From assembly GCA_022563395.1 (NCBI GenBank), contig JADFNM010000001.1:526342-590341 (forward strand): DNA of 64,000 nucleotides. The letters run 5' to 3'. Every line of letters starts with the position of its first letter. Positions within the stretch are counted from its first letter, which is position 1. This document shows, in pieces, positions 2,946 through 61,395 of the stretch. This DNA is from Patescibacteria group bacterium. Lineage in GTDB: Bacteria > Patescibacteriota > Minisyncoccia > Minisyncoccales > UBA10102. The position numbers and the translations under genes are program-made. The notes beneath the pieces are model-generated. The model saw nothing but the letters and a program-made list of their open reading frames with translations, did not search any database and was not told where the DNA came from.

Positions 2946-4229
2946 ATGCTGAATATTCTTAGAAAAGTTACCCCAAAGTTTCTCTTGAGCTGGTACCATT
3001 TTGTGTGGGCGTTAGCCGGGGCTTTGGTGTTCCGCTTTCCTGCCCGTGGCATGGTTGTTATTGGTGTGACAGGAACCAATGGGAAGTCTACCACTGTGGA
3101 CATGATTTCCCGTATTTTTAAGGAAGCTGGTTTAAACAGCGCCTCCATGTCTTCGGTTCGTTTTCAACTGAAAGATACAGAGTGGCGAAATACCATGAAA
3201 ATGACCATGCCAGGGCGTTTTGTCATCCAACAGTTCTTGCGCCAGGCAAAGACTAAGGGATGCACTCACGTGGTTTTAGAAGTGACGTCAGAAGGAATGC
3301 TCCAACATCGCCACCGCTTCATACCCTTTCACACCGCCGTCTTTACCAATCTTTCGCCAGAACACATTGAACGTCATGGTTCTTTTGAAAACTACAAGAA
3401 AACAAAAGGCAAGCTCTTTTCTCTTGCACAGGGAGTGCATGTTATCAATATAGATGATAAGCATACCCCATTCTTTCTTAAGTTCCCCGCACAAGAGATA
3501 TATACCTATGGCATATATCCTAAACGAGATTTAGGAATTCCTAAATCTCGTTTGAGCACCACACATATTCAAGGAGAAGATGTGAGAGAAAATGGGGGGC
3601 TGGATTTTAAAGCGCTGGGAACTAAATTTCATTTAGGACTTCTTGGTAGGTTTAATGTGTACAATGCTTTAGCTGCAATTGCAGTGGCACGATCTCAGGG
3701 AATCTCTCTTAAAGTTTGCAAAAATGCCCTAGAGAAAATGCAGGTGGTTCCAGGAAGAATGGAAGAAGTGATTTCTTCCCCCTTTCGGGTGGTGGTAGAT
3801 TACGCCTTTACCCCGGCTGCCTTAGAAAAAGTATACGAAACGCTTAAGCCCGCTTCTGGAAAGTTGCTCTGTGTTTTGGGAGCAGCCGGCGGAGGACGGG
3901 ATGCTTGGAAACGCCCTATCTTGGGTAAGATTGCATTGCAACATTGCAACACAGTCATCGTAACAGATGAGGATCCGTATGAAGAAAACCCAGAGAAAAT
4001 CATGGATGAGGTGATTGCGGGGGCCAAGGGAGAAGCAGAGAAGGTGCAAGATAGAAGGCAAGCTGTTGCAAAGGCATTGAGCATGGCACAAGCGGGAGAC
4101 ACCGTTGTTATTACCGGAAAAGGGTCTGAGGATTCCATGGCAGTTAAGGGAGGAAAGAAAATTCCTTGGGATGATAGAGAAGTGGTTAAAGAGGAGTGGA
4201 CGAAACTCAAAGAACGTGGTACGCTTTGA
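2946..4229 (+). CDS. Mur ligase family protein (MurE-like, short, TM-anchored)
   Basis: 427 aa. N-terminal hydrophobic helix, then P-loop GVTGTNGKSTT and a C-terminal Mur ligase domain (VITGKGSE). It lacks the N-terminal UDP-binding domain of canonical MurE. Confidence 0.75.
   Translation: MLNILRKVTPKFLLSWYHFVWALAGALVFRFPARGMVVIGVTGTNGKSTTVDMISRIFKEAGLNSASMSSVRFQLKDTEWRNTMKMTMPGRFVIQQFLRQAKTKGCTHVVLEVTSEGMLQHRHRFIPFHTAVFTNLSPEHIERHGSFENYKKTKGKLFSLAQGVHVINIDDKHTPFFLKFPAQEIYTYGIYPKRDLGIPKSRLSTTHIQGEDVRENGGLDFKALGTKFHLGLLGRFNVYNALAAIAVARSQGISLKVCKNALEKMQVVPGRMEEVISSPFRVVVDYAFTPAALEKVYETLKPASGKLLCVLGAAGGGRDAWKRPILGKIALQHCNTVIVTDEDPYEENPEKIMDEVIAGAKGEAEKVQDRRQAVAKALSMAQAGDTVVITGKGSEDSMAVKGGKKIPWDDREVVKEEWTKLKERGTL
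3519..3556. repeat. R1 repeat copy, in frame within the Mur ligase gene
   Basis: CCTAAACGAGATTTAGGAATTCCTAAATCTCGTTTGAG is translated as PKRDLGIPKSRLS. The left flank GCATATATCC resembles the common GCATATCTCC flank. Confidence 0.85.
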
Positions 4230-7576: not shown

Positions 7577-8644
7577 CTAAAGACTCGGCGACGCGATTCT
7601 AGAAGGAGCAAACTTTACTCCCCGTGCTATCTTTCGCGGAAGGGAGGGCCCTTCGTAGATCAGCCCTGTGTAGAGTTGCACGAGGTCAGCTCCCGCAACT
7701 TCTATCATGCGTCGGGCATCGTCAATAGTGAAGATGCCCCCAACGCCAATGATGAGAAGATTGGGAGCTTGTCTCCGTACATGGCGCACTACCGAGAGTG
7801 CCTTGTCTGTGAGAGGTCTCCCGCTCAAGCCACCAGAAACGTCGGTTGGAGAACTGAGCCCTTCCCTGCTCAGGGTGGTATTGGTTGCGATTATTCCTGG
7901 AACGCTCTCATCCGCACACACCTGGAGCACATCGTCTATGGCATCTGGCGTGAGGTCAGGGGCAATCTTGACGAGCAAGGGCTTTGGCTGTTGTCCTTGC
8001 GCCAAGGCAATCAACTTCGCTTGGAGGGCTTTAAGGAGTGTTGAGAGCTGTTCTTTGCCCTGGAGTCCTCTTAAGCCCGGGGTGTTCGGAGAGCTGACGT
8101 TTAAAGCGAAGTAATCCCCGAACTGGTGGAGCAGCAGAAGCGAGTAGAGGTGGTCTTCGATAACTGCCCCCAGGTCTTCTGGGTCCACCACCTTTGACTT
8201 GCCCAAGCTGATGCCTATGGGAATGAGTGGTTTTCCCGAGCGAGACAAGGTTTGCATCATCTTTGCTGCTCCATGGTTGTTGAATCCCATGGCATTGATG
8301 AGTGCCTCGTCTTTCGGGAATCTAAAGATGCGTGGCCTCGGGTTCCCCGCCTGCTCCTTTGCAGTTACGGTGCCAACTTCCAAAAACCCAAACCCAAGAG
8401 CTGAGAGCGCCCATATGGCACGGGCGTCTTTGTCAAGACCCGCTGCCAGGCCCACGCGGTTCGGGAAGCGAATCCCGAGCAGCTCAACAGGGTCATCTAC
8501 CCTGAGGAAGTTTCCTACGGCCTGGGAGAGCACATGTGGCGTCCCAAGGTAGTGAAGCAGGGTGATGACCAGCTTGTGTGCCCTCTCTGCATCTCCTGTT
8601 GAGAGCGCAAATAGGAGCGGCCGGATCAGTAATTTGTACAGCAT
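7577..8644 (-). CDS. pyrD: Dihydroorotate dehydrogenase (quinone), class 2
   Basis: 355 aa with N-terminal membrane-association helix MLYKLLIRPLLF. Motifs GLAAGLDK, GF.EVGT, NVSSPNTPGLR and IIGVGGI. GC-rich, and preceded by the SD GAGAGGAGAG. Confidence 0.9.
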   Translation of the reverse strand: MLYKLLIRPLLFALSTGDAERAHKLVITLLHYLGTPHVLSQAVGNFLRVDDPVELLGIRFPNRVGLAAGLDKDARAIWALSALGFGFLEVGTVTAKEQAGNPRPRIFRFPKDEALINAMGFNNHGAAKMMQTLSRSGKPLIPIGISLGKSKVVDPEDLGAVIEDHLYSLLLLHQFGDYFALNVSSPNTPGLRGLQGKEQLSTLLKALQAKLIALAQGQQPKPLLVKIAPDLTPDAIDDVLQVCADESVPGIIATNTTLSREGLSSPTDVSGGLSGRPLTDKALSVVRHVRRQAPNLLIIGVGGIFTIDDARRMIEVAGADLVQLYTGLIYEGPSLPRKIARGVKFAPSRIASPSL

Positions 8645-12902: not shown

Positions 12903-14171
12903 ATGATAACGGTAGCGGATTTAAAGGGTAAAACAGTAGCAGCTGCGGTCTCCGGAGGGCTAGACTCCTGTACTTTAACCCGTTGGCTGACAGATAACAG
13001 TGTTACGGTTATCTGTTTTGTAGTTGATCTCGCGCAACCAGATGAGGTGAACTTTGATAACGCGAAAAAGAGACTGTTAATAGCGGGTGCCAAAGAAGTT
13101 GTAGTTGTAGATGGGAAAAATGATTTAGCGCACATTGGGATTTTGGGAGTACAAATGCAAGCAAAATATGAGGGGGGGTATTGGAATACCACAGGTTTAG
13201 CTCGCTATGTAATCACAGAACTGGTACTTCGGGAAATGAAAAAAAGAAGAATAACTATTCTTACCCATGGTGCAACTGGAAGAGGAAATGATCAAGTGAG
13301 ATTTCAACTTATCGCCAATATGCTTGACCCGAACATCGATGTTTATGCGCCCTGGAGAGACGATGCTTTTCTCGATGCCTTTGGGGGAAGAAAAGAAATG
13401 ATTGCCTTTTGTAAAAAGCGAAATATCCCAATTACAGCAACCATACACAAGTCCTATAGTACAGACGCCAATATGCTTGGCCTGACTCATGAGGCAGGAA
13501 AGTTAGAATCACTAGCTACCCCCGCTGACTTTGTTGTTCCCGAAATGGGAGTTCTTCCCCAAAATGCTCCAGACAGAGAGGAGAAGTTTTACGTGACATT
13601 TAAGAAAGGATTTCCGGTCAAAGTGAATGGCAAAAAAACAACGCTCCTTGAAGCATTTCTCCTGGCGAATAAAGTTGGGGGAAGAAATGGAGTAGGTATA
13701 GGAATTCATGTTGTAGAAAATAGGTTTGTGGGTATAAAATCGCGAGGGGTTTATGAAATGCCAGGCATGGAGCTCTTGGGGAATTGTTATGAATTTCTTC
13801 TGCAGCTTGTTTTAGAACGCCGTTCTCGAAAACTCTTTCAATCTCTTTCGGGATTCCTTTCTGAACAAATTTACCAAGGTTACTTTTACGACCCCGCATC
13901 TCAAGCTGCAATGTCTGCGGTCAAGTACATTTCCTCTCTTATCAGCGGCACTGTATACGTAAAGCTTTATAAGGGGAATGTTTTCTACCAAAAAATCGAA
14001 GATGCAAGGCACTCTCTTTACTCAGAAGAAACAGCCTCTATGGAAAAGATTGGGACCTTTAACCATGCTGATTCTGAAGGACTTTTGAATATACTCGGTA
14101 TTACTGCAAAGGCTCAGAGCGTGGCAAAACAGATTAATCTTACGCCCACAAAGGCAAAGCCCGGAGCTTAG
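12903..14171 (+). CDS. argG: Argininosuccinate synthase
   Basis: 422 aa. N-terminal PP-loop AAVSGGLDS plus the motifs GATGRGNDQVRF and STDANMLG. Confidence 0.9.
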   Translation: MITVADLKGKTVAAAVSGGLDSCTLTRWLTDNSVTVICFVVDLAQPDEVNFDNAKKRLLIAGAKEVVVVDGKNDLAHIGILGVQMQAKYEGGYWNTTGLARYVITELVLREMKKRRITILTHGATGRGNDQVRFQLIANMLDPNIDVYAPWRDDAFLDAFGGRKEMIAFCKKRNIPITATIHKSYSTDANMLGLTHEAGKLESLATPADFVVPEMGVLPQNAPDREEKFYVTFKKGFPVKVNGKKTTLLEAFLLANKVGGRNGVGIGIHVVENRFVGIKSRGVYEMPGMELLGNCYEFLLQLVLERRSRKLFQSLSGFLSEQIYQGYFYDPASQAAMSAVKYISSLISGTVYVKLYKGNVFYQKIEDARHSLYSEETASMEKIGTFNHADSEGLLNILGITAKAQSVAKQINLTPTKAKPGA

Positions 14172-14172
14172 A

Positions 14173-15672
14173 TTAGATTTGGTTTAGATAGTTAGTAACT
14201 ACTTGTTCGTCACTCCATTTAAATTGTTTATCTCTAATCTCAAGAAACTTTTCGTCACCCTTTCCCGTAATAACCACAAAATCTCCTTCTCTCGCATACT
14301 CTAAACCCTTTTGTATTGCTTTTTTTCTATCAATTTCTACCATGAAATTGTTCTTTTTTATTCCCCTCACTATCTCTTGAACGATCCTTCTTGGATTTTC
14401 ATTGCGGGGATCTTCAGATGTAATGATTGAAAAATCTGCTAATCTGGTAGCGACCCCTCCCATCTCTGCTCTTTTTTTAGGATCTCTATCGCCGGCACAA
14501 CCAAAAATTACTATCAAGCGCTTGGGAGAGTTCTTTTTCAGTGTTTTGAGACAAACCTCAAGGGATTCGGGCGTGTGGGCATAGTCTATTAGTACTCTGA
14601 ACCCCCTATTATTTTTGACTTCTTGTGCCCTACCTGGTACCCCAGAAAATCTCGCCAAGGAATTCTTGATTTTTTTGTAGGAGATTCCAAAATGAGAAGC
14701 AACGGCGATAGCAGCACATACGTTATAAACGTTATGCAGCCCAATCAAAGACGATTCGAATGTTTGGTTGCCTACTTTGAACACTGTTCTGTTGTTTTCT
14801 ATCTTAATCGATCTGGCGTTAATATCTGCGTGATTACGAACTCCGTAAGTTATTATTTTTGAGGTCACTCTCTTTTTTAGAAACTGGCAACTTTGCATGT
14901 CATTATTTATCACGGCACACTTTTCAAGGTTTTTGTTTTGGGACGTAGATAACAAATCAAAAAGTTTTGCCTTCGCGAGATAATAGTCCCTTTTGCTTTT
15001 ATGGAAGTCAAGATGTTCGCTTTGCAAGTTGGTTATGACGGCAACGTCATACTGGCACTCTTCAGCTGCTCTGCATAGTTTTAAGGCGTGCGAAGTAGCC
15101 TCGATTATGGCAACCTTTGTACCCAGCTCCACCATTCGTTTGAGGCTTTTTTGGAGCTCTGGTGCTTCGGGGCAGGTTAGGTGCGTTTCATTGACTTTGT
15201 CTGTGTAGTTTGAGATTGAATGTGCCCCTATTTTAAAATCAGCAGTTGAAAAAAACCCTGTCTTTATTCCTGCGTCTTCTAGCAGGTGACTTATTAAATA
15301 CACTGTTGTAGTTTTGCCTTTTGTTCCGGTTACACCTATCGTAAAGAGCTTTTTTGCTGGGTAAGAATAAAAGAAAGCAGAGAGTCTTTCTAAAACTTTT
15401 CTAGGGTTTGAGTTAATAATCTGACAAACATCTTCATTGATGTTCTGTCTCTTTTTGAGAATTAAAGCTTTTGCCCCATTTCTTATAGCTTTCCTAATGA
15501 ATACATGACCATCTCTTTCTTTCCCCTGATGGTTAAAAACGTCGATTGCGGCGTAAATATTATTGGGTCTTACTTTACGGTAATCATAACTCACCCCACT
15601 AACCCTGAAGTCTTTGTAGTTTAAAATTAAAGAGTCTTCTCTTAGAACAGATGACATGACGCTAAATCTCAT
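14173..15672 (-). CDS. murE: UDP-MurNAc-L-Ala-D-Glu:diamino acid ligase (full-length MurE-like)
   Basis: 499 aa. N-terminal domain (YDYRKV.PNNIY...DGH.FI..A..NGA), P-loop GVTGTKGKTTT, and C-terminal TSEDPRNENP (compare the DNPR motif). Very AT-rich, and convergent with argG with a 1-nt gap. Confidence 0.75.
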   Translation of the reverse strand: MRFSVMSSVLREDSLILNYKDFRVSGVSYDYRKVRPNNIYAAIDVFNHQGKERDGHVFIRKAIRNGAKALILKKRQNINEDVCQIINSNPRKVLERLSAFFYSYPAKKLFTIGVTGTKGKTTTVYLISHLLEDAGIKTGFFSTADFKIGAHSISNYTDKVNETHLTCPEAPELQKSLKRMVELGTKVAIIEATSHALKLCRAAEECQYDVAVITNLQSEHLDFHKSKRDYYLAKAKLFDLLSTSQNKNLEKCAVINNDMQSCQFLKKRVTSKIITYGVRNHADINARSIKIENNRTVFKVGNQTFESSLIGLHNVYNVCAAIAVASHFGISYKKIKNSLARFSGVPGRAQEVKNNRGFRVLIDYAHTPESLEVCLKTLKKNSPKRLIVIFGCAGDRDPKKRAEMGGVATRLADFSIITSEDPRNENPRRIVQEIVRGIKKNNFMVEIDRKKAIQKGLEYAREGDFVVITGKGDEKFLEIRDKQFKWSDEQVVTNYLNQI

Positions 15673-15673
15673 T

Positions 15674-16636
15674 CTAGAACGCAGGAATAAAAGCTCTTTT
15701 AAGGGACGATGACCTCCGAATTGCTTTTGAGAGCCCGAGATTAGCTATAAGACGCACAAAGGGAAGGACTTGTTTGCTATACCTTTTTGAGCATTTTAAT
15801 GGCGCAAGTCCTGGAAGGCTATATATGCACATGTGGTAAATTTCTCTTCCGTTAATACCCACAGAGTAATAAGGCTTATCGAGGGTGGTTGGCCTGCAGG
15901 TTTCAATACAGCTTATAGGGTCCGCAGAGAGGTCTAAGACCAAAGATTCTTTGTTTAAAAGCACGAGTTGCTCTTTTGTTATCAAGTATTTCCCAACTTC
16001 CTCTGCTTTTCTAAGAGTAGCGTTGACGACCACCTCTGCGTTTTTTAGGTGCTTGCCCATATTTTTCTTAGACGTTTGTTTTTCTCCAAGAACCGTTACT
16101 GAGGCCCCAAACTTACAAGCCGTTTGTATCGCTGGAATTGCCAAGTTGCCATACCCCATGATTACAATATTTTCAGGAGTTTTTTTATAGATTTTTTCAA
16201 AGAGTTTAAAGCCTGTTTTTATGCCTTCTGAACCAGAAATTTCAAAGGCTTCTACGAGCCTTTTCCCATCACTATTCTTAATCTCGTTTAATTCAATGAC
16301 GTTTATCCTTCTTTTTTTGAATTCTGCAACCATTTCTGGATGAGTGTCTCTATGAACCATGCAGATAAGGACACTATTTTTTTTCATGAGGTCTAATTCA
16401 TCAAGGGTAGGGATTCTTATTCTTAAAACAATATCTGAGGAATACACCTCTTTTTTTGAAGATATTATGGCCCCGGCCCTTTTATATTCTTCGTTTGTAA
16501 ACTTAAGTTTCCTGCCAGCATCTTTCTCTACTCTCACGGTATGGCCGTCTTTTACAAGACGTTGAACAAATTGGGGGAGTAAGAGTACTCTTTTTTCTGT
16601 TTTTTCTCTATTTTCTTTTGAAACACCAATAAGCAT
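15674..16636 (-). CDS. AlaDH/PNT-family NAD(P)-dependent dehydrogenase (CEOS-like in size)
   Basis: 320 aa. N-terminus IGVSKENREKTEKRVLLLP and Rossmann motif IVIMGYGNLAIPAIQ. Its stop is 1 nt from the murE start. Very AT-rich. Confidence 0.6.
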   Translation of the reverse strand: MLIGVSKENREKTEKRVLLLPQFVQRLVKDGHTVRVEKDAGRKLKFTNEEYKRAGAIISSKKEVYSSDIVLRIRIPTLDELDLMKKNSVLICMVHRDTHPEMVAEFKKRRINVIELNEIKNSDGKRLVEAFEISGSEGIKTGFKLFEKIYKKTPENIVIMGYGNLAIPAIQTACKFGASVTVLGEKQTSKKNMGKHLKNAEVVVNATLRKAEEVGKYLITKEQLVLLNKESLVLDLSADPISCIETCRPTTLDKPYYSVGINGREIYHMCIYSLPGLAPLKCSKRYSKQVLPFVRLIANLGLSKAIRRSSSLKRAFIPAF

Positions 16637-16764
16637 ATTAGTAACTCTAGTAAGGCCCCTATATCTCGTACTGTAAAGGCATGAATACTTTTGTCAATGC
16701 TGTACTTTAAGGCAAATTGACATTGCCCCCCTTTGCACATTAGAATGAAACGGTAGGAAGAATC

Positions 16765-17919
16765 ATGGCAAAGAAAAACAAGCTAAACTTTGGCTTTCCA
16801 TTTGGTGCGCTCCAAGATGAGATAATAGAGCTTTTTGAGGCCGCAGGGTACAAGGTAAAAGTTGATCAGACGCTCCAGAAGATTGAAATCAGCGACCCCG
16901 ACATCACATGCCTTTCTGCCCGTCCCATTGCCATATCCTCCATGGTTGAGAGGGGAATTTTGGATGTGGGCATTTCTACGGAAGCATCGGTCATAGAGGC
17001 AAAGACAAAAAGGGTGAAAGAAGTATGTGATCTTGAGTATGAAAAATCCCTTTGGGGAAAGACCAATGTGGTGTTGGCGGTCCCCAAGGATTCCAAGATT
17101 GCAAGCGTGAAAGGCCTTCGGGGCAAGAAAATCATCACCAGGATTCCCGAAATCACCAAAGAGTTTTTGCGAAAAAACAAGATTCAGGCTGAAATTCTGT
17201 ATTCTGACTCCCTGGTGAACGAATCTAAGGTTGGGGTGACTGCAGATGCCATTGTGGAGTTTTCCAGAAGGGGGGATGTGCTGGCAGCCTACAGCTTAAA
17301 AGTCCTCAAAACCCTGTTTGAGAGCTCGGTGATTTTGATTGCAAACCCAAAGGCGCTGCAGGATGCCACAAAGAAAAAGAAGATTCAAGAACTCGCAACC
17401 CGTCTCAGGAGAGCCCGTTCTCAGCAGGAGCAGATGGTGAGTCCCTACACTCCATCTGGGAGTACAACTCATCTTGATGATATTGACCTCAAGATTCTCC
17501 AGGAGCTTTTTGAAGATGGGAGAAAGTCCTTTGTGGAAATCGCCAAAGATACAAAACTGAGTTCGGTTGGTGTTAAAAAAAGAATAGAGAAACTGCTGCG
17601 AGAAGATATTGTACAGGTTCGGGGGTTCATGAACATTGAGAAGATGTATGCCATGAGTGCTGTAATCGGGGTGGAGGCAGACAGCAAGACTTTAGCAGAG
17701 CTTGTAGAGCGGTTCCAACGCTCTCACTTTGTATATATGCTTGTGAAAACTTCGGGGAGATACAACCTTGCTGTGGGAGTGCTTGCCTCAGACCTCGGGA
17801 GTCTTGAGAGTTTCATCACGAAAGAGATCCGGGAGAAGAAAGGAGTAAAACAAGTAGAGGTGAGTGTTGGAGAACTGCCCCTTATCCCCAAGTGGGTTTC
17901 CCCACCTTTTTATAAATAG
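16765..17919 (+). CDS. HisG-like domain fused to an Lrp/AsnC-type regulator (HTH plus RAM domain)
   Basis: 384 aa. Residues 1 to about 215 follow the ATP-phosphoribosyltransferase (short HisG) pattern (ARPIAISSMVERGILDVGIS..., ...VGVTADAIVEF..RGDVLAA). Residues from about 235 carry the AsnC HTH (DDIDLKILQELFEDGRKSFVEIAK) and a C-terminal RAM-like domain. Confidence 0.55.
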   Translation: MAKKNKLNFGFPFGALQDEIIELFEAAGYKVKVDQTLQKIEISDPDITCLSARPIAISSMVERGILDVGISTEASVIEAKTKRVKEVCDLEYEKSLWGKTNVVLAVPKDSKIASVKGLRGKKIITRIPEITKEFLRKNKIQAEILYSDSLVNESKVGVTADAIVEFSRRGDVLAAYSLKVLKTLFESSVILIANPKALQDATKKKKIQELATRLRRARSQQEQMVSPYTPSGSTTHLDDIDLKILQELFEDGRKSFVEIAKDTKLSSVGVKKRIEKLLREDIVQVRGFMNIEKMYAMSAVIGVEADSKTLAELVERFQRSHFVYMLVKTSGRYNLAVGVLASDLGSLESFITKEIREKKGVKQVEVSVGELPLIPKWVSPPFYK

Positions 17920-20229: not shown

Positions 20230-21147
20230 ATGAGATACGGCATCGTCGTTCATGGCGGTGCTGGCGGCATCTCTCCTCCAACAAGGAAGGGATGTCGTCA
20301 GGCTGCCGAGGTTGGTATGGAGACTCTCCGGCAAGGAGGTTCTTCCCTGGATGTTGCGGTGGCAGCGGTACGCTGGATGGAAGACAGCGGTCGTTTCAAT
20401 GCAGGCACGGGTTCTGTTCTCCGGATTGATGGAACCATTGAGATGGATGCAGTGGTCGCAACCTCCCAAGGACTTCAGGGAACGGTGAGCGCTGTGCCCG
20501 AAGTCAAGAACCCAGTACTGCTTGCCCTTGAGGTGGCTCGCAGCAACATGCGGCACATCAGTGGACCCGGAGGCAGTCGCTTCGCACAGGAACAGGGCTT
20601 GGAATCTCATCCAGGAGCAACCCGTAGGGCGCGACAGCGCTTGGGGGTGCTCAAGGCAGAAATCAGACAGGCCTTGGCCAAGGGCGAGGTTCCTCAGGGG
20701 TGGACAGAAGAGGAACTCCGAAGATTCGTTGGATCCGATGGGGCACATCCTTCCCGCTGTCTCCAGGCTGTAGAGATGCAGCACGATACCGTAGGCGCAA
20801 TTGCGCTTGACAGGAATGGTGTAGTTGCACTGGCAGCATCCACCGGCGGAAACGGTCTCATGCGGAGCGGAAGAACAGGAGACGTATCGCACCGAGGCGA
20901 TGGATGGGACATTAAACCAGAAGAAGGTGTCCTTGCCACCGGTGTTGGGGAGGCGATCATTGACGAAAGAGGTGCCGACGTCGTGCTAGGGCTCTTGGGT
21001 CTTGGCTTTACGCCACAGCAGGCGTGTGAACAGGCACTGGAGCGCTTTTCGCCCCAAACCAACGTTGGGTTCATCGCCCTCGCAAGGGATGCCATTGGGA
21101 TAGCAGCAAACTGCCCCATGGCGTCTCACAGCATAACAGAGGGATAA
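20230..21147 (+). CDS. iaaA: Isoaspartyl peptidase / L-asparaginase (Ntn hydrolase, plant type)
   Basis: 305 aa. Motifs HGGAG, FNAGTGS, and the autoprocessing site HDTVGAIALD. GC-rich with a strong SD GAGGGGAGGGG. Confidence 0.85.
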   Translation: MRYGIVVHGGAGGISPPTRKGCRQAAEVGMETLRQGGSSLDVAVAAVRWMEDSGRFNAGTGSVLRIDGTIEMDAVVATSQGLQGTVSAVPEVKNPVLLALEVARSNMRHISGPGGSRFAQEQGLESHPGATRRARQRLGVLKAEIRQALAKGEVPQGWTEEELRRFVGSDGAHPSRCLQAVEMQHDTVGAIALDRNGVVALAASTGGNGLMRSGRTGDVSHRGDGWDIKPEEGVLATGVGEAIIDERGADVVLGLLGLGFTPQQACEQALERFSPQTNVGFIALARDAIGIAANCPMASHSITEG

Positions 21148-25476: not shown

Positions 25477-25598
25477 TATAATTTGTCGCGAGTGTCAAAC
25501 TTGTTTTGCACGAGCGACACCTTGGTGTTCTTTTACGGTTGGAACTCCCCTCCAAATTTGCAAAAGCAAATTTGGAGAATAAAAAGGGTCCAAATTAG

Positions 25599-25951
25599 TG
25601 GAGGTGGGGGCGGTGAAGCCCCGTCTAGAAGATATTCTACCAGTACTTCTACAGGCATAGTCCCATTGAAAGAGAAAGAAGGCGGGAATGGGACGAAGTT
25701 CTTCTTTCTTATGATTCTGTTTGTGTCGCAGCGTTCCCGAATCGCGAAACGATGCCTTTCTCGATGGTTGACACCTGTTTTGCCTATCGAGAGTCAGCAA
25801 ACAGATGGCTTACGGTATTATGCGTAGGCAAACGCCGGTTGTGCCGGCTTGAAAACGTTGGCATTTGTGGTGCCCCAGGTTTTTTTATGAGGAGCCTGGA
25901 ACCTCAGCCTGCATACTGGTGTCCTTTCCTCTATCGAAACAATTCACCCCC
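25599..25951 (-). ncRNA. ssrA: tmRNA (SsrA), one-piece
   Basis: 5' end GGGGGTGAATTGTTTCGATAG. The 3' T arm is GGGGC-TTCACC-GCCCC, followed by acceptor strand CACCTCC and discriminator A. The 7-bp acceptor has a G3:U70 pair. The tag ORF GCC AAC GTT TTC AAG CCG GCA CAA CCG GCG TTT GCC TAC GCA TAA encodes ANVFKPAQPAFAYA*. It lies directly downstream of smpB on the same strand. Confidence 0.85.
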
Positions 25952-31346: not shown

Positions 31347-31985
31347 ATGGAAATAGCAACCCTCGATCAGGCAACGAAGATACTAGCCCACTTTAAGGAT
31401 GAGCCAAGGGACCAAGTTCAGGCACTTATTGAGTCTGGACTTCTAGCTGACCTTCGGGATGCCAATTTCAACGAGGAGATTGACCGAGACGCAGTTCGGA
31501 AGCTTCTTGGCCTTAAGCCACTCAACCAGCCGTTTCTGGAGGAGGGCGGCACGGCCATGATTCCGGCGACTACTGAGCAGTTTGTGGTCCGAGAGAAGTT
31601 TGTGAGGGGCAATACCTTGTTTCTTGGCATGAATTTCGAGGGGTGGTTTGAAGGCAAGACCGAGGAAGCAGTCATGGAGACAGAGCTTCGCTACGCGACG
31701 CTTACAGGATCTTTGGTGGGCAGGCCAATTCTCGCCGAACTCGGCGACAAGGCCGAAACCACACTTGCCCAGATTTGGGCTCTCATGGAGCGCCAGCCCA
31801 ACGGCGAGGAAGGCGTTTTGCTCACCGGCGGGTGGGAGAATGTCTTCTATGTCCGTGATGTCAACGGCGAGCTCCGTGTGGTGTACGTCAGCCGGGGCGG
31901 TAGCAGCTGGCTCGTGGATGCTGACTTGGCCACGCGCATGCGTAGTTTGAGCGTTGGCTATCGGGTGTTCTCCCGCAATTCCTAG
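31347..31985 (+). CDS. Hypothetical protein (orphan, GC-rich islet)
   Basis: 212 aa with the strong SD AAGGGAGGA. No motif I can recognise. Composition is clearly GC-richer than the flanking ileS and recO. Confidence 0.6.
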   Translation: MEIATLDQATKILAHFKDEPRDQVQALIESGLLADLRDANFNEEIDRDAVRKLLGLKPLNQPFLEEGGTAMIPATTEQFVVREKFVRGNTLFLGMNFEGWFEGKTEEAVMETELRYATLTGSLVGRPILAELGDKAETTLAQIWALMERQPNGEEGVLLTGGWENVFYVRDVNGELRVVYVSRGGSSWLVDADLATRMRSLSVGYRVFSRNS

Positions 31986-47804: not shown

Positions 47805-48920
47805 ATGATTACTCCAAATCTCAGGAAAGTTATCGCAAAGCTTGGCTTCCAGGACGCATACATTCAAAGAAAAGCTGAAGAGGTTTTATCTATTGCACGT
47901 ACAAAGGGGTTGCACATAGAGCACGATGCTCTCATACTTGTTTGTTATGATATGAATGGTCCCCTGACAAGTACGCGAGATACGGCGCTCCATCCAATTA
48001 CGGGAATCCAGGAAGCAATCGGCGTACTTGAAAAAGACAACATACAAAAAGCTTTGGTGTCTGGTTGGGACATGACGACTCTTGCGCGTTTTCGCGACCA
48101 ACGCCTCCAGGCTCCTTATTTGCATATTGTTGGGGAGCTTGGCATGGTATGGGACTGGAAGGGAGAAGTACAAGAAGTAAGCCCCATTGCAATGCAGGAG
48201 GTGTATCGCATGAAGGAAATCCTTTATCGGGAAGTGGCACGAGAAAATTTAAAGATTGGGGTACAGGGAAATAAATCCTCAAGAATTACCGGTGTTTTTT
48301 TTGAAGCGGAAGGTTTTCGGCGTGCGAATCTCGTAAACCATCTTTTGCTCAAGGGCAAGAAAATTACGACTAAGGATATCTTCCAATCTTTGCAAAACGA
48401 GCAGGATTTTGTCTGGGATGACGACAGGATCATATTTCCCTGCAAGCAACCATATATTCAAGAAATTGATAGAGTCCTTCGCACTGTGTTCACACTGCAT
48501 TCGGTGAGGCTGGCGCTTGAAAAAGACAGGATCGCACTTTGGGTTGATCACATTGATAAAGAAGATTACTCACCTAAAGACATGAAGAGTTTTTTCAGTA
48601 AGATTCTGCCAGCTCCATGGGAAGTTTTTGTTCACGATGACTTTGGGGCAGAAATTATGTTCCGCGACGAAGAAGGGAAGAAAATTAGTAAGGAATCAAC
48701 CGCGCATCTTTTAGGGGAGAGATTATTCAATGACAAACCCTTCATACTGACCCATGTTGGGGATAGGTCCTCTGACGTATTCATCGGAGATGACAGCATC
48801 TTTTTTGCACAAAAAGGCACCTCAGCTGAAATGTATTGTATAGAAAACAACATTCCTTATATATCAGTCATGCACGGTGGAGATTATAGCTTAATCCTTG
48901 CGGCGTTGCTAAAAATATGA
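47805..48920 (+). CDS. HAD superfamily-like hydrolase (atypical motif I)
   Basis: 371 aa. A motif I-like YDMNGPLT (DxN instead of DxD) and C-terminal THVGDRSSDVFIGDD (motif III/IV-like). The assignment is tentative. Confidence 0.45.
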   Translation: MITPNLRKVIAKLGFQDAYIQRKAEEVLSIARTKGLHIEHDALILVCYDMNGPLTSTRDTALHPITGIQEAIGVLEKDNIQKALVSGWDMTTLARFRDQRLQAPYLHIVGELGMVWDWKGEVQEVSPIAMQEVYRMKEILYREVARENLKIGVQGNKSSRITGVFFEAEGFRRANLVNHLLLKGKKITTKDIFQSLQNEQDFVWDDDRIIFPCKQPYIQEIDRVLRTVFTLHSVRLALEKDRIALWVDHIDKEDYSPKDMKSFFSKILPAPWEVFVHDDFGAEIMFRDEEGKKISKESTAHLLGERLFNDKPFILTHVGDRSSDVFIGDDSIFFAQKGTSAEMYCIENNIPYISVMHGGDYSLILAALLKI

Positions 48921-49891
48921 AAGAAGAGGTTGCAGTGCAATTTGGGTTGACACCGCCCCTTGGAGTGATTTCTGCTCCCCCTGGCTTACTTCATCAAACG
49001 TTTTTTGTACAGGCAAAAGAGGGAGATTTTGTCTTTCAGCGATTGCATCAGATCATAAAGCCAGAAACTTGCCAAGATGCAAAAGTAATCACTGATTACG
49101 TGAGGGTGCGGGGAATGGCGGTGCCAGAGTTTTTTGTAACAAAGGAAGGGAATCCATGGTATAGGACCTCTGATGGTTCCTTGTGGCGCGCAATGTCACG
49201 TTTGCCAGGTTCCAGTCACTCTAAAGTTCAGTCTGCAGAGGAGGCCTATGCGGCAGCGCAGTTCTTGGGAGGGTTTCATACATCCCTTGCGGAATTCTCT
49301 TACGAATGCAGTGGAGCAATTCCTCGTTTTCATGACACCCCCTACCTTTTTGAGCAATTCAATGAAGTTGTTTTGAAATACAAAGAGACTCCGCTCTTTG
49401 TACCTGTTGCCAAAGACACAGCATACATTACAGAGCATATGCCCAAAGAGTTCCTGCCGTCCAATCTTCCTCGCCAGATTGTGCATGGAGACCCCAAGAT
49501 CTCCAACTTTCTCTTTGATAAAGATAGTGTGTGTGGTCTTATTGATTTTGACACTTGCATGAATCACACCAAATTGGTAGATATAGGGGATGCGCTGCGG
49601 AGCTGGTGTAACCGAGAAGACGAAGATACCAAGCCTGTCTTTGACCGCACTTTCTACAATGCTGCCGTGGAAGGATATAGGAGTTCTGCAATACTTACCG
49701 AGATGGAACGCCAGCTTATCCCTCAGGCATTGAGGTTGATTACAACTGAGCTTGCAATGCGTTTTTTGCAAGATTATTTTGAGGATTCCTATTTTGGCTG
49801 GGATGCAGCGCACTTTGCAACAAGACGAGAACACAATCTTACGCGCGCCCGAAACCAAATAGAACTACACCACCAGATTATGCAGTCATGA
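48917..49891 (+). CDS. APH-fold sugar anomeric kinase (NahK/AmgK-like N-acetylhexosamine 1-kinase family)
   Basis: 324 aa. Catalytic loop IVHGDPKISNFLFD, DFD metal motif GLIDFDT, and a C-terminal ELAMRFLQDYF..SYF......HNLTRARNQ pattern recalled from the NahK family. Its start overlaps the HAD stop (ATGA). Confidence 0.6.
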   Translation: MKEEVAVQFGLTPPLGVISAPPGLLHQTFFVQAKEGDFVFQRLHQIIKPETCQDAKVITDYVRVRGMAVPEFFVTKEGNPWYRTSDGSLWRAMSRLPGSSHSKVQSAEEAYAAAQFLGGFHTSLAEFSYECSGAIPRFHDTPYLFEQFNEVVLKYKETPLFVPVAKDTAYITEHMPKEFLPSNLPRQIVHGDPKISNFLFDKDSVCGLIDFDTCMNHTKLVDIGDALRSWCNREDEDTKPVFDRTFYNAAVEGYRSSAILTEMERQLIPQALRLITTELAMRFLQDYFEDSYFGWDAAHFATRREHNLTRARNQIELHHQIMQS

Positions 49892-60201: not shown

Positions 60202-61395
60202 ATGACCCAAAAGACTATTGAACGGCGGTCATGGCTGCCCGAAGGAAAACAAAATCTCTTTCAGGCAGTCAAGGCCAAGCGGGCCGAGGCTGAAGCGCGC
60301 GGGATTAAGGTGTTGAACCTTGCCATTGGGCAGCCCACGGGTCCTGCGTTTTTGGTTGCTAGGATGGTGGCGGCCCAGGCGGTGATGAGCAAGGAAGAGT
60401 CCATGCACGAGTACCAAGACAACGGAAGTCCTGGTGTGCCGGACTTTGCCAGGAAGTTTGTTCAGCTCCACGTCAAGCGAGATCTAGGCGGAGAGGACGT
60501 CACGTTCCTTCCAATCCCTGGTATCAAACCCATGCTTGGGCTCATTCCATTGGCATGCGGCGCTGCCGGACGCGATATCAATGTGGGCACCATGACCAGA
60601 CCTGGGTACCCAACGCCTGCTGACTGGTGTTCCTACCTTGGTGTGGAAACTACGCAGCTTCTCCTGACTCCCGAGAACGAGTTTCGGTTCGCTTCCGAGG
60701 ACATCACAGCGGAGCTCTTGATGCTCAACTATCCGCATAACCCGTCAGGGCAGGTGGCGACCCGCGAGTGGTGGCAGGAGATCTGCGCCTCTTGTCAGAA
60801 GAACGGTATACGCATCTTCAACGATGCTGCATACGCCATGCTGGCCCACACCAAGGAAGCGTGCACGCTCTCTGAGGTGGCGCCTGACTACCCGGACCTT
60901 TCGTGGGCGGAGGCGTTCTCTGCTTCCAAGGCAATCGGCAACGGCACGGGGTGGCGAGTTGGGGCCATCGCGGGGTCCCCGGATTTTGTTAAGGATATTG
61001 CCACCATCAAGGGGAATACAGATAGCGGGTTTGTGGCCCCTATGGCAGCGGGCGCGCTGGCCGCCCTTCAAGACGGCATGGCGAGCGTGGTCTCGGTTCG
61101 TGAGACCTATGCCAGACGTATCTCTCTGCTCATCTCCGCACTCAAAGCACAGGGCATGGAGCTGGCGGTGCAGCCAGGAGCCGGGTTCTTCACTCTATGG
61201 AAAGTGCCCAAGATAGCGTTCGGAGAACCGGTGCTGGATGCAGAACAGTTCAACTTCCACATGATCGAGGAGACAGGCGTCACCGGAGTGCACTTCAACC
61301 CCGACTATATCCGCTATGCGGTGTGCGGGGATGTGGAGGCGATGCTCCCCGACATCGTGAGGGGATTCCAAAAGGCCGCTGTTTCCTACGAGTAG
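60202..61395 (+). CDS. PLP-dependent aminotransferase, class I/II (DapL/AspC-like)
   Basis: 397 aa. Motifs LNYPHNPSG, the PLP-lysine context FSASKAIG, and RVG. GC-rich with the SD GGAGGT. Confidence 0.8.
   Translation: MTQKTIERRSWLPEGKQNLFQAVKAKRAEAEARGIKVLNLAIGQPTGPAFLVARMVAAQAVMSKEESMHEYQDNGSPGVPDFARKFVQLHVKRDLGGEDVTFLPIPGIKPMLGLIPLACGAAGRDINVGTMTRPGYPTPADWCSYLGVETTQLLLTPENEFRFASEDITAELLMLNYPHNPSGQVATREWWQEICASCQKNGIRIFNDAAYAMLAHTKEACTLSEVAPDYPDLSWAEAFSASKAIGNGTGWRVGAIAGSPDFVKDIATIKGNTDSGFVAPMAAGALAALQDGMASVVSVRETYARRISLLISALKAQGMELAVQPGAGFFTLWKVPKIAFGEPVLDAEQFNFHMIEETGVTGVHFNPDYIRYAVCGDVEAMLPDIVRGFQKAAVSYE

Follow-up and report, generated by a model that had tools for sequence, protein, structure and literature searches.

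An alanine dehydrogenase-like enzyme encoded beside an accessory MurE in Patescibacteria: a probable cassette for a non-standard cell-wall peptide

Cross-linking of peptidoglycan and the way in which enzymes, phages and host immunity recognise it are both decided by the residue at position 3 of the stem peptide. Among described systems, the pairing of a 2-oxo-acid dehydrogenase with an ATP-dependent ligase to reprogramme this peptide is found in VanH-VanA of the vancomycin-resistance operon, and an ornithine-derived amino acid is made by N5-(carboxyethyl)ornithine synthase (CEOS), which condenses ornithine or lysine with pyruvate at the expense of NADPH. How, then, is the position-3 residue provided in bacteria of the candidate phyla radiation (CPR), which cannot make most amino acids? 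This supply is poorly understood, and it is here that a two-gene cassette, found on a 64,000-nucleotide stretch of contig JADFNM010000001.1 from a Patescibacteria group bacterium (hereafter the window), becomes relevant. The cassette joins a short dehydrogenase of the alanine dehydrogenase (AlaDH)/PNT superfamily to a full-length MurE in a genome that also carries a short MurE, and the two enzymes probably give rise to a cell-wall peptide that departs from the standard. The three genes concerned are as follows.

15674..16636, minus strand: dehydrogenase gene, first of the cassette, encoding a short (320 aa) AlaDH/PNT-superfamily protein (open reading frame list, Pfam, profiles)
14173..15672, minus strand: gene for a predicted accessory, full-length, three-domain MurE paralog of 499 aa (open reading frame list, Pfam, NCBIfam/TIGR profiles)
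2946..4229, plus strand: gene for a short MurE of 427 aa without domain 1, the comparator to the 499-aa enzyme

The two cassette genes are separated by a single nucleotide (junction TAG-a-ATG), as the initial annotation had read them, and the MurE gene is translationally coupled to the dehydrogenase gene; an alternative start would give a MurE of 494 aa. In the proposed mechanism the pair would act as a vertically inherited, operon-like module of a small Patescibacteria lineage that makes or modifies a building block and then attaches it. The dehydrogenase, in which the catalytic set for 2-oxo-acid/imine chemistry is kept, would probably be biosynthetic, supplying or modifying an amino acid drawn from the neighbouring arginine/ornithine pathway, and the outcome would be a position-3 residue alternative to the one added by the short MurE of the lineage, with L-ornithine or an ornithine derivative as the leading candidate. 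The dehydrogenase could carry out N5-carboxyalkylation of ornithine in the manner of CEOS or of a saccharopine-type enzyme, could regenerate the amino donor that ornithine aminotransferase needs, or could itself be an ornithine-forming or -consuming dehydrogenase. The analysis shows how the genes are arranged and coupled, that the pair is conserved, where the proteins fall among their families, the ornithine/arginine setting and the partnership with ligases across the dehydrogenase family; which acceptor and which amino acid are used, and which step comes first, is what we infer. That an old, inherited cassette charges the peptidoglycan stem peptide with ornithine, or with a residue derived from it, is a tentative proposal, given slightly less than an even chance of being correct.

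The partnership is conserved. Close relatives of the dehydrogenase (P0001-P0007, 54-100% identical) were considered over eight distinct CPR loci, namely the window (equivalent to L001-3), L034, L031, L004, L005, L012, L035 and L007. The adjacency that the initial annotation had proposed to look for in other genomes is kept, in the order dehydrogenase then MurE, in seven of these eight publicly available loci, the gaps being 1, 1, 1, 7, -4, 3 and 3 nt, and a MurE of this clade is preceded by the dehydrogenase in every locus where it is found. Flanking gene order varies between loci while the spacing within the pair stays tight. The identity matrices of the two proteins between carriers run in parallel (54-92% and 56-90%), so that dehydrogenase and MurE have been inherited together. 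The module is also rare: an exhaustive hidden Markov model search over 1.84 billion cluster representatives collapses the MurE-linked subclade to one cluster at 50% identity, a metagenome scan yielded one new locus only, and no member of the subclade was found among the GTDB representative genomes.

Base composition bears on the age of the pair. None of the other genes among the 49 of the window is as low in GC as these two, which stand at 0.388 and 0.389 where the mean is 0.459 and the standard deviation 0.042, and the count of 17 G+C in 14173-14232 given in the initial annotation is exact. The accompanying description of the pair as far more AT-rich than the window is overstated, with z about -1.65, GC at third codon positions not the lowest and codon usage no outlier. 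The recent horizontal acquisition proposed on these grounds fails: the same offset, 0.023-0.074 below the flanks, recurs in all five MurE-bearing loci tested and tracks the GC of each host, and the two proteins co-diverge to 56-60% identity. Composition was rejected as evidence of recent transfer, and for these reasons the acquisition of the pair is taken to be old.

The 499-aa protein is, judged by profiles and its predicted structure, a genuine three-domain MurE. It matches Pfam Mur_ligase_M/C and lies above the TIGR01085 murE cut-off (457.6 versus 257.3 bits, covering model positions 2-471 of 472), far above the 125 bits that it scores as a cyanophycin synthetase; the Pfam N-domain PF01225 falls below its cut-off (18.7 versus 21). 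The AlphaFold2 (AF2) model has a predicted local distance difference test score (pLDDT) of 92.7, with 82-98 over the N-terminal 100 residues, and a predicted template-modelling score (pTM) of 0.91, and in Foldseek it superposes on the S. aureus and T. maritima MurE enzymes over all three domains with template-modelling (TM) scores of 0.86-0.87. The P-loop GTKGKTT and the DYAHTP and GDRDxxKR motifs are readable in the alignments. Because the curated cut-offs are passed, the motifs can be read and the model superposes on known MurEs, the enzyme looks competent.

The clade to which this MurE belongs comprises about seven sequences. Beyond it the next-best MurEs, which are not from Patescibacteria, reach an identity of 41% at most, the named ones coming from Chloroflexota (Ktedonobacteria), Elusimicrobia and similar groups. 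In all seven members GKGDE replaces GKGHE, whose H is present in 112 of 113 outgroup MurEs, and apart from this and the DNPR position ten columns nearly invariant in the outgroup are changed. Departures of the clade from such columns include S31Y/F and F40Y in domain 1 and T167C in TTPE. The initial annotation of a full-length, three-domain MurE carrying EDPR at the DNPR position holds on TIGR01085, NF001126, the AF2 model and the alignment, and yet the motif itself is not diagnostic. It reads EDPR in four members, DDPH in two and EDSR in one, and EDPR is present in ordinary outgroup MurEs, so that it was rejected as a marker of specificity. Domain 1 binds UDP in known MurEs; loss of the serine of DSR (S31) as a sign of lost UDP binding was weakened as an argument by the MurEs of M. 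tuberculosis and T. maritima, which are also without it.

The amino-acid pocket is more acidic than in DAP-type (diaminopimelate-type) enzymes (E420, D421, D473, E474, and GKGDE in 7/7). In a study of the S. aureus MurE an acidic pocket was linked to cationic lysine or ornithine side chains, and the Asn and Arg of DNPR bind the distal carboxylate of DAP in meso-DAP-adding MurEs (PMC3829189). Read in the light of that study, the pocket weakly favours a cationic residue of the ornithine/lysine type over a DAP-like one.

The 427-aa protein also belongs to the MurE family (TIGR01085, 351 bits), is without domain 1 and carries EDPY and GKGSE as its motifs. Its homologues number thousands; the best 120 are all at least 56% identical, most of about 390-450 aa, and the named ones among these 120 are Wildermuthbacteria, Parcubacteria or Patescibacteria. 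Since thousands of Patescibacteria homologues share the short form, it is this enzyme that is the standard MurE of the lineage and the 499-aa enzyme that is the rare accessory copy, a point on which the initial annotation is corrected. The two paralogs of the window are 36% identical to each other, a comparison that rests on the window genome, the other carriers being known from short contigs. The short Mur ligase had also been described as membrane-anchored: the gene is real and of the MurE family, and the anchor is unproven, for the N-terminal segment is weakly hydrophobic (Kyte-Doolittle maximum 1.58) and overlaps partly with the first beta-strand before the P-loop. That so many Patescibacteria share a MurE with EDPY and GKGSE motifs and no UDP-binding-type N-terminal domain is an observation in its own right.

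The dehydrogenase carries Pfam AlaDh_PNT_N/C (PF05222, PF01262), and with Mur_ligase_M/C in its partner the profile check gave the domains expected. It lies far below the L-alanine dehydrogenase equivalog TIGR00518 (111.5 bits versus a cut-off of 391.85) and below the PntA models (TIGR00561/NF006942, 74-96 bits versus 383-444), which match its N-terminal domain only; no pntB lies nearby, and D239, which the PNT-like long relatives are without, is kept. The predicted model (pLDDT 90.1) finds its best structural match, by Foldseek against the PDB, in the AlaDH structures 1pjb/2vhw (TM 0.84), and identity to L-alanine dehydrogenases of known structure (1pjb, 2vhw, 2eez) is 28-31%, the protein being about 50 residues shorter. 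In a neighbour-joining tree, whose deep nodes are unresolved, the CPR subclade is monophyletic in 100/100 bootstraps and the CEOS-named proteins form a separate clade in 98/100. With the cluster of P0431/P0524 as reference, a member of which is named N5-(carboxyethyl)ornithine synthase by NCBI, the clade profile gives CEOS-type proteins 156-166 bits, no better than AlaDHs. The clustering with ordinary AlaDH or PntA that would have spoken against a special role is not seen, and the CEOS-like character suggested in the initial annotation stands for size only, given the separate clade and different pocket residues. Sequence comparison thus places the enzyme neither with ordinary AlaDH, nor with transhydrogenase subunits, nor with CEOS.

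What sort of chemistry might such an enzyme mediate? Column analysis finds R16, H95, D235, D239 and E245 retained in the subclade, among them the equivalents of the AlaDH catalytic residues R15, H95 and D269 (as R16, H95 and D239). The full AlaDH set, including Lys74 and the pocket residues Tyr/Phe93 and Asn300, is not present: K74 is R in 7/7, and Y/F93 has become M and N300 has become S. Subclade-specific changes comprise K72R, K74R and E117N (each 7/7) together with H99 and R209, the net effect of which is a pocket more basic than in the sister dehydrogenases, with E115 and E118 flanking position 117 as a possible compensating shift for E117N. Where the NAD-specifying Asp would stand after beta-2, the subclade reads G-R-K and the window protein G-E-K, and because a Glu follows here the cofactor preference is uncertain. 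The loss of this Asp and the ornithine genes nearby hint, only indirectly, at a CEOS-type reaction. A number of further ideas were discarded. R126, which presumably corresponds to Arg127 of R. rubrum dI, is common to PNT-like relatives and all sister proteins and is not a new carboxylate-binding residue; the long relatives are not Rosetta-stone ligase fusions, having AlaDh_PNT domains only, one with a TIR insert; identities as PylD, an ArgZ/AgrE-type cyclodeaminase or LysX/LysW have no supporting curated-model matches; and PMC5852551, taken up as a CEOS-related source, concerns PylB. One protein from the exhaustive search, P0508 (561 aa), is an alanine dehydrogenase whose N- and C-terminal domains are separated by an inserted TIR domain.

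The wider family gives the strongest clue to the logic of the pair. The nearest relatives of the dehydrogenase are 32-40% identical, 308-343 aa long and found mostly in DPANN archaea (Undinarchaeales, Aenigmatarchaeota, Nanoarchaeia, Woesearchaeota, Micrarchaeota), with further hosts in Methanosarcinales, Omnitrophota, Clostridia and one gammaproteobacterium. A same-strand ATP-grasp ligase stands downstream of the sister dehydrogenase in 16 of 18 GTDB loci plus L011, usually within about 150 nt or overlapping, and one exception stops at a contig edge. This ligase matches Pfam ATPgrasp_YheCD and resembles the RimK, MptN and STM4014 models below their cut-offs; in three archaeal loci another ATP-grasp separates it from the dehydrogenase.

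L011, L014-L022, L024-L030 (for example L014 1992-4023; L019 8001-10074): self-contained cassette of short AlaDH-like dehydrogenase and YheCD/RimK-like ATP-grasp
L016 8975-10027; L022 1028-2065; L026 3800-4855: stand-alone ATP-grasp, best match the cyanophycin-synthetase G domain (223 bits)

A class-I GATase is nearby in two sister loci, argH and argD are nearby only in L028, and all-against-all clustering with a Pfam census of 105 flanking proteins found no other recurrent partner. Across Bacteria and Archaea, then, this dehydrogenase family is almost always partnered with an ATP-dependent carboxylate-amine ligase, which reinforces the initial idea of an amino-acid-making enzyme feeding an amide ligase. 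As the nearest relatives pair with ATP-grasp, the CPR subclade has swapped this ligase for a Mur ligase.

The second clue is the neighbourhood. In all eight CPR loci, arginine/ornithine genes are found no more than two genes away from the cassette, as listed here.

argG: window, L031, L004, L005, L007
argH above the TIGR00838 cut-off: L034, L004, L005
argH-like lyases, by Pfam domains and similarity only: L007, L031
argS: L004, L007, L012
N-acetylornithine carbamoyltransferase (NF003384, 400 versus 288 bits): L007 12720-13751, minus strand
ArgE/DapE-family M20 deacylases: L007 (two), L035
Divergent enzymes labelled 'ADI', distant relatives of arginine deiminase (70-88 bits versus cut-offs of 414-489): L004 8534-9805; L007 4645-6012; L012 1178-2314

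In L035 a same-strand run reads M20 (ArgE/DapE-type) deacylase, dehydrogenase, MurE and ornithine--oxo-acid transaminase, the last above TIGR01885 (422.7 versus 378.4 bits) although its gene is truncated. The M20 deacylases of L007 and L035 score about equally on DapE and ArgE models. The window yielded no genes for the supply of DAP, lysine or ornithine, and dapA, dapB, asd, dapF and lysA were found neither there nor in any locus. Two observations may be set beside these: the 'ADI'-labelled neighbours belong to the guanidino-modifying superfamily, and L007, from a lineage usually thought to be without amino-acid biosynthesis, has an acetylated-intermediate variant of arginine synthesis, with N-acetylornithine carbamoyltransferase, ArgG, ArgH and the two ArgE/DapE-type deacylases.

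Around the cassette itself the following features were placed.

12903..14171, plus strand: argG, the argininosuccinate synthase gene, running toward the MurE gene
16637..16764: 128-nt intergenic spacer carrying sigma-70-like sites back to back (consensus matches only)
16697-16670, minus strand: promoter-like site toward the cassette, TTGACA-16-TACAGT (consensus match only)
16717-16746, plus strand: promoter-like site toward the regulator gene, TTGACA-18-TAGAAT (consensus match only)
16765..17919, plus strand: HisG-domain::AsnC/Lrp fusion gene, divergent from the cassette

The stops of argG and the MurE gene face each other with 1 nt between them, and this convergence, like the divergent HisG-like::AsnC gene, which Pfam and profile matches support, had been read correctly in the initial annotation. 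The HisG domain of the fusion lies above the TIGR00070 hisG cut-off (97.6 versus 75.75 bits) and its AsnC/Lrp part comprises a helix-turn-helix and a ligand-binding domain; the protein is a candidate amino-acid-sensing regulator of the cassette, and it is kept, at 71% identity, only in the closest relative, L034 (216-1379, minus strand). The joining of a HisG domain to an AsnC/Lrp regulator is itself unusual.

Elsewhere in the window, high-GC outliers (60202-61395, 20230-21147, 31347-31985 and 7577-8644, at 0.55-0.58, z +2.2 to +2.9) depart more from the mean GC of 0.459 than the low-GC cassette does; 20230-21147 is of the Asparaginase_2 family, 7577-8644 is a dihydroorotate dehydrogenase, and 31347-31985 (plus strand, 212 aa) has no Pfam match. 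An open reading frame of 371 aa at 47805-48920 (plus strand), with no Pfam or NCBIfam match, shares 4 nt with the beginning of a gene for an APH-family kinase (48917-49891). A tmRNA gene at 25596-25951 (minus strand; Rfam RF00023, 107 bits), absent from the ARAGORN output, lies about 1.2 kb from a 148-aa gene annotated as smpB in matching contigs.

How well does the ornithine proposal withstand the alternatives? Several facts weigh against it: an ornithine-adding MurE has no obvious need for a dehydrogenase; the catalytic Lys74 and Glu117 have become Arg and Asn, such that the chemistry may differ from reductive amination; the MurE lies above the DAP-ligase equivalog NF001126 (454.3 versus 373 bits); the arginine/ornithine neighbourhood may be inherited synteny of close genomes, though gene orders differ; in L007 an M20 deacylase occupies the MurE position and there is no adjacent MurE; and the sister cassettes occur mostly in archaea without murein, so that the product of the family is not intrinsically a component of the cell wall. 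In a different account, which we consider unlikely, the MurE-like enzyme took over the role of the sister ATP-grasp and, with the dehydrogenase, makes a small amide-linked metabolite or modifies another acceptor, for instance an arginine/ornithine conjugate in the manner of the cyanophycin synthetase M domain. The ATP-grasp pairing in DPANN archaea, Methanosarcinales, Omnitrophota and others, the CphA-G-like second ATP-grasp of three sister loci, the changes at S31, F40 and T167 and the sub-threshold Pfam N-domain are all in keeping with it. Set against these are the MurE score of 457 bits, as opposed to 125 as a cyanophycin synthetase, and the retention of a confidently folded domain 1 of the kind that binds UDP, and the missing serine of DSR is weak evidence when two known MurEs are also without it.

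The NF001126 match opens another route, namely that a 2-oxo acid of the (acyl-)2-amino-6-oxopimelate type is reductively aminated by the dehydrogenase, which would act like meso-DAP dehydrogenase or stand in for DapC, and that the MurE is an ordinary DAP-adding enzyme of a DAP-type wall. The Arg of DNPR is kept in 5/7 members, ArgE/DapE-family deacylases adjoin the dehydrogenase in L007 and L035, and the basic residues gained in the subclade active site (R72, R74, R96, H99, R209) would suit a polycarboxylate 2-oxo acid. The DAP and lysine genes searched for are missing, however, from the window and from every locus, the neighbours that could be identified belong to arginine/ornithine metabolism, a genuine ornithine aminotransferase among them, and the carboxylate-binding Asn of DNPR is Asp here, with the Arg replaced by His in two members; the DAP account is highly improbable. 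Nor does it seem that the pair is simply a diverged dehydrogenase for alanine or another simple amino acid and a redundant MurE, adjacent only by shared ancestry in a few close genomes. The carriers are indeed related (54-92% identity), which would permit synteny by descent, the fold and most catalytic residues are AlaDH-like and L007 does without the MurE; but the two genes stay 1-7 nt apart, or overlap by 4 nt, despite changing flanking gene order, the ligase partnership spans domains of life with a different ligase family, and the dehydrogenase misses the AlaDH cut-off widely (111 versus 392), is some 50 residues short and has an altered pocket (Y/F93M, N300S, K74R, E117N), which together make so plain an explanation very unlikely. 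The loading of ornithine or a derivative by an inherited cassette is the reading that we retain.

No description of a dehydrogenase-MurE or a dehydrogenase-ATP-grasp pairing was found in the searchable literature, and what is new here is a MurE paralog with a probable dedicated supplying enzyme, built on a dehydrogenase-plus-ligase logic. The locus exposes an uncharacterised dehydrogenase family tied to amide ligases across Bacteria and Archaea, and the exchange of an ATP-grasp for a Mur ligase offers a clean natural experiment in pathway evolution. The case is directly testable: a single minimal genome holds both MurE paralogs, and the accessory one is tightly joined to its dehydrogenase within an island of ornithine/arginine genes. 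A bolder extension, for which the prospects are modest at best, is a new peptidoglycan chemotype of the CPR, in which the dehydrogenase reductively condenses ornithine with a 2-oxo acid to a DAP-mimicking N5-carboxyalkyl-ornithine or similar compound, or makes a different non-proteinogenic amino acid. The product would be placed at position 3 by the accessory MurE, and the sister cassettes would make a related amino acid and join it, through an ATP-grasp, to a non-murein acceptor. If true, this would represent an undescribed pathway, 'dehydrogenase + amide ligase', that is widespread among ultra-small symbiotic microbes.

Compared with the individual enzymes already known, each partner is recognisable and each is different. 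The 499-aa protein shares with known MurEs the curated cut-offs, the three-domain fold and the P-loop with its conserved motifs, and differs in GKGDE, in EDPR/DDPH/EDSR, in an identity of at most 41% outside its clade and in the dehydrogenase that is always upstream. L-Alanine dehydrogenase has the same two-domain AlaDH/PNT fold and the R15/H95/D269 equivalents, but is longer by about 50 residues, whereas the cassette enzyme has K74R, E117N, Y/F93M and N300S, a replaced NAD-specifying Asp and a link to a ligase. With CEOS the dehydrogenase has in common the superfamily, the short length (309-334 aa), the missing acidic NAD-specifying residue and a physiological link to ornithine; the CEOS signature W93, R124, F127, W128, R129, N130 and N131 is absent from it, and CEOS is no closer than AlaDH.

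As systems, two comparisons are instructive. Cyanophycin synthetase CphA1 combines an ATP-grasp G domain with a Mur-ligase-like M domain and acts on arginine, and it is between these two ligase types that the dehydrogenase family alternates; the CphA-G-like ATP-grasp of three sister loci and the arginine-metabolism context of the cassette add to the likeness, from which the cassette ligase departs in being a true MurE by score, in its UDP-binding-type domain 1 and in having no polymerase architecture. The likeness to VanH-VanA is one of analogy rather than homology. VanH is a D-2-hydroxyacid dehydrogenase and not of the AlaDH fold adopted by the cassette enzyme, VanA works at positions 4-5 where the proposed site of the cassette is position 3, and a VanX-like or resistance context accompanies VanH-VanA and not the cassette. 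VanA is nevertheless an ATP-grasp ligase, like the partners in the sister cassettes, and in both arrangements the ATP-dependent ligase that installs a non-standard block would be encoded beside an enzyme that uses NAD(P)H and works on a substrate of the pyruvate type.

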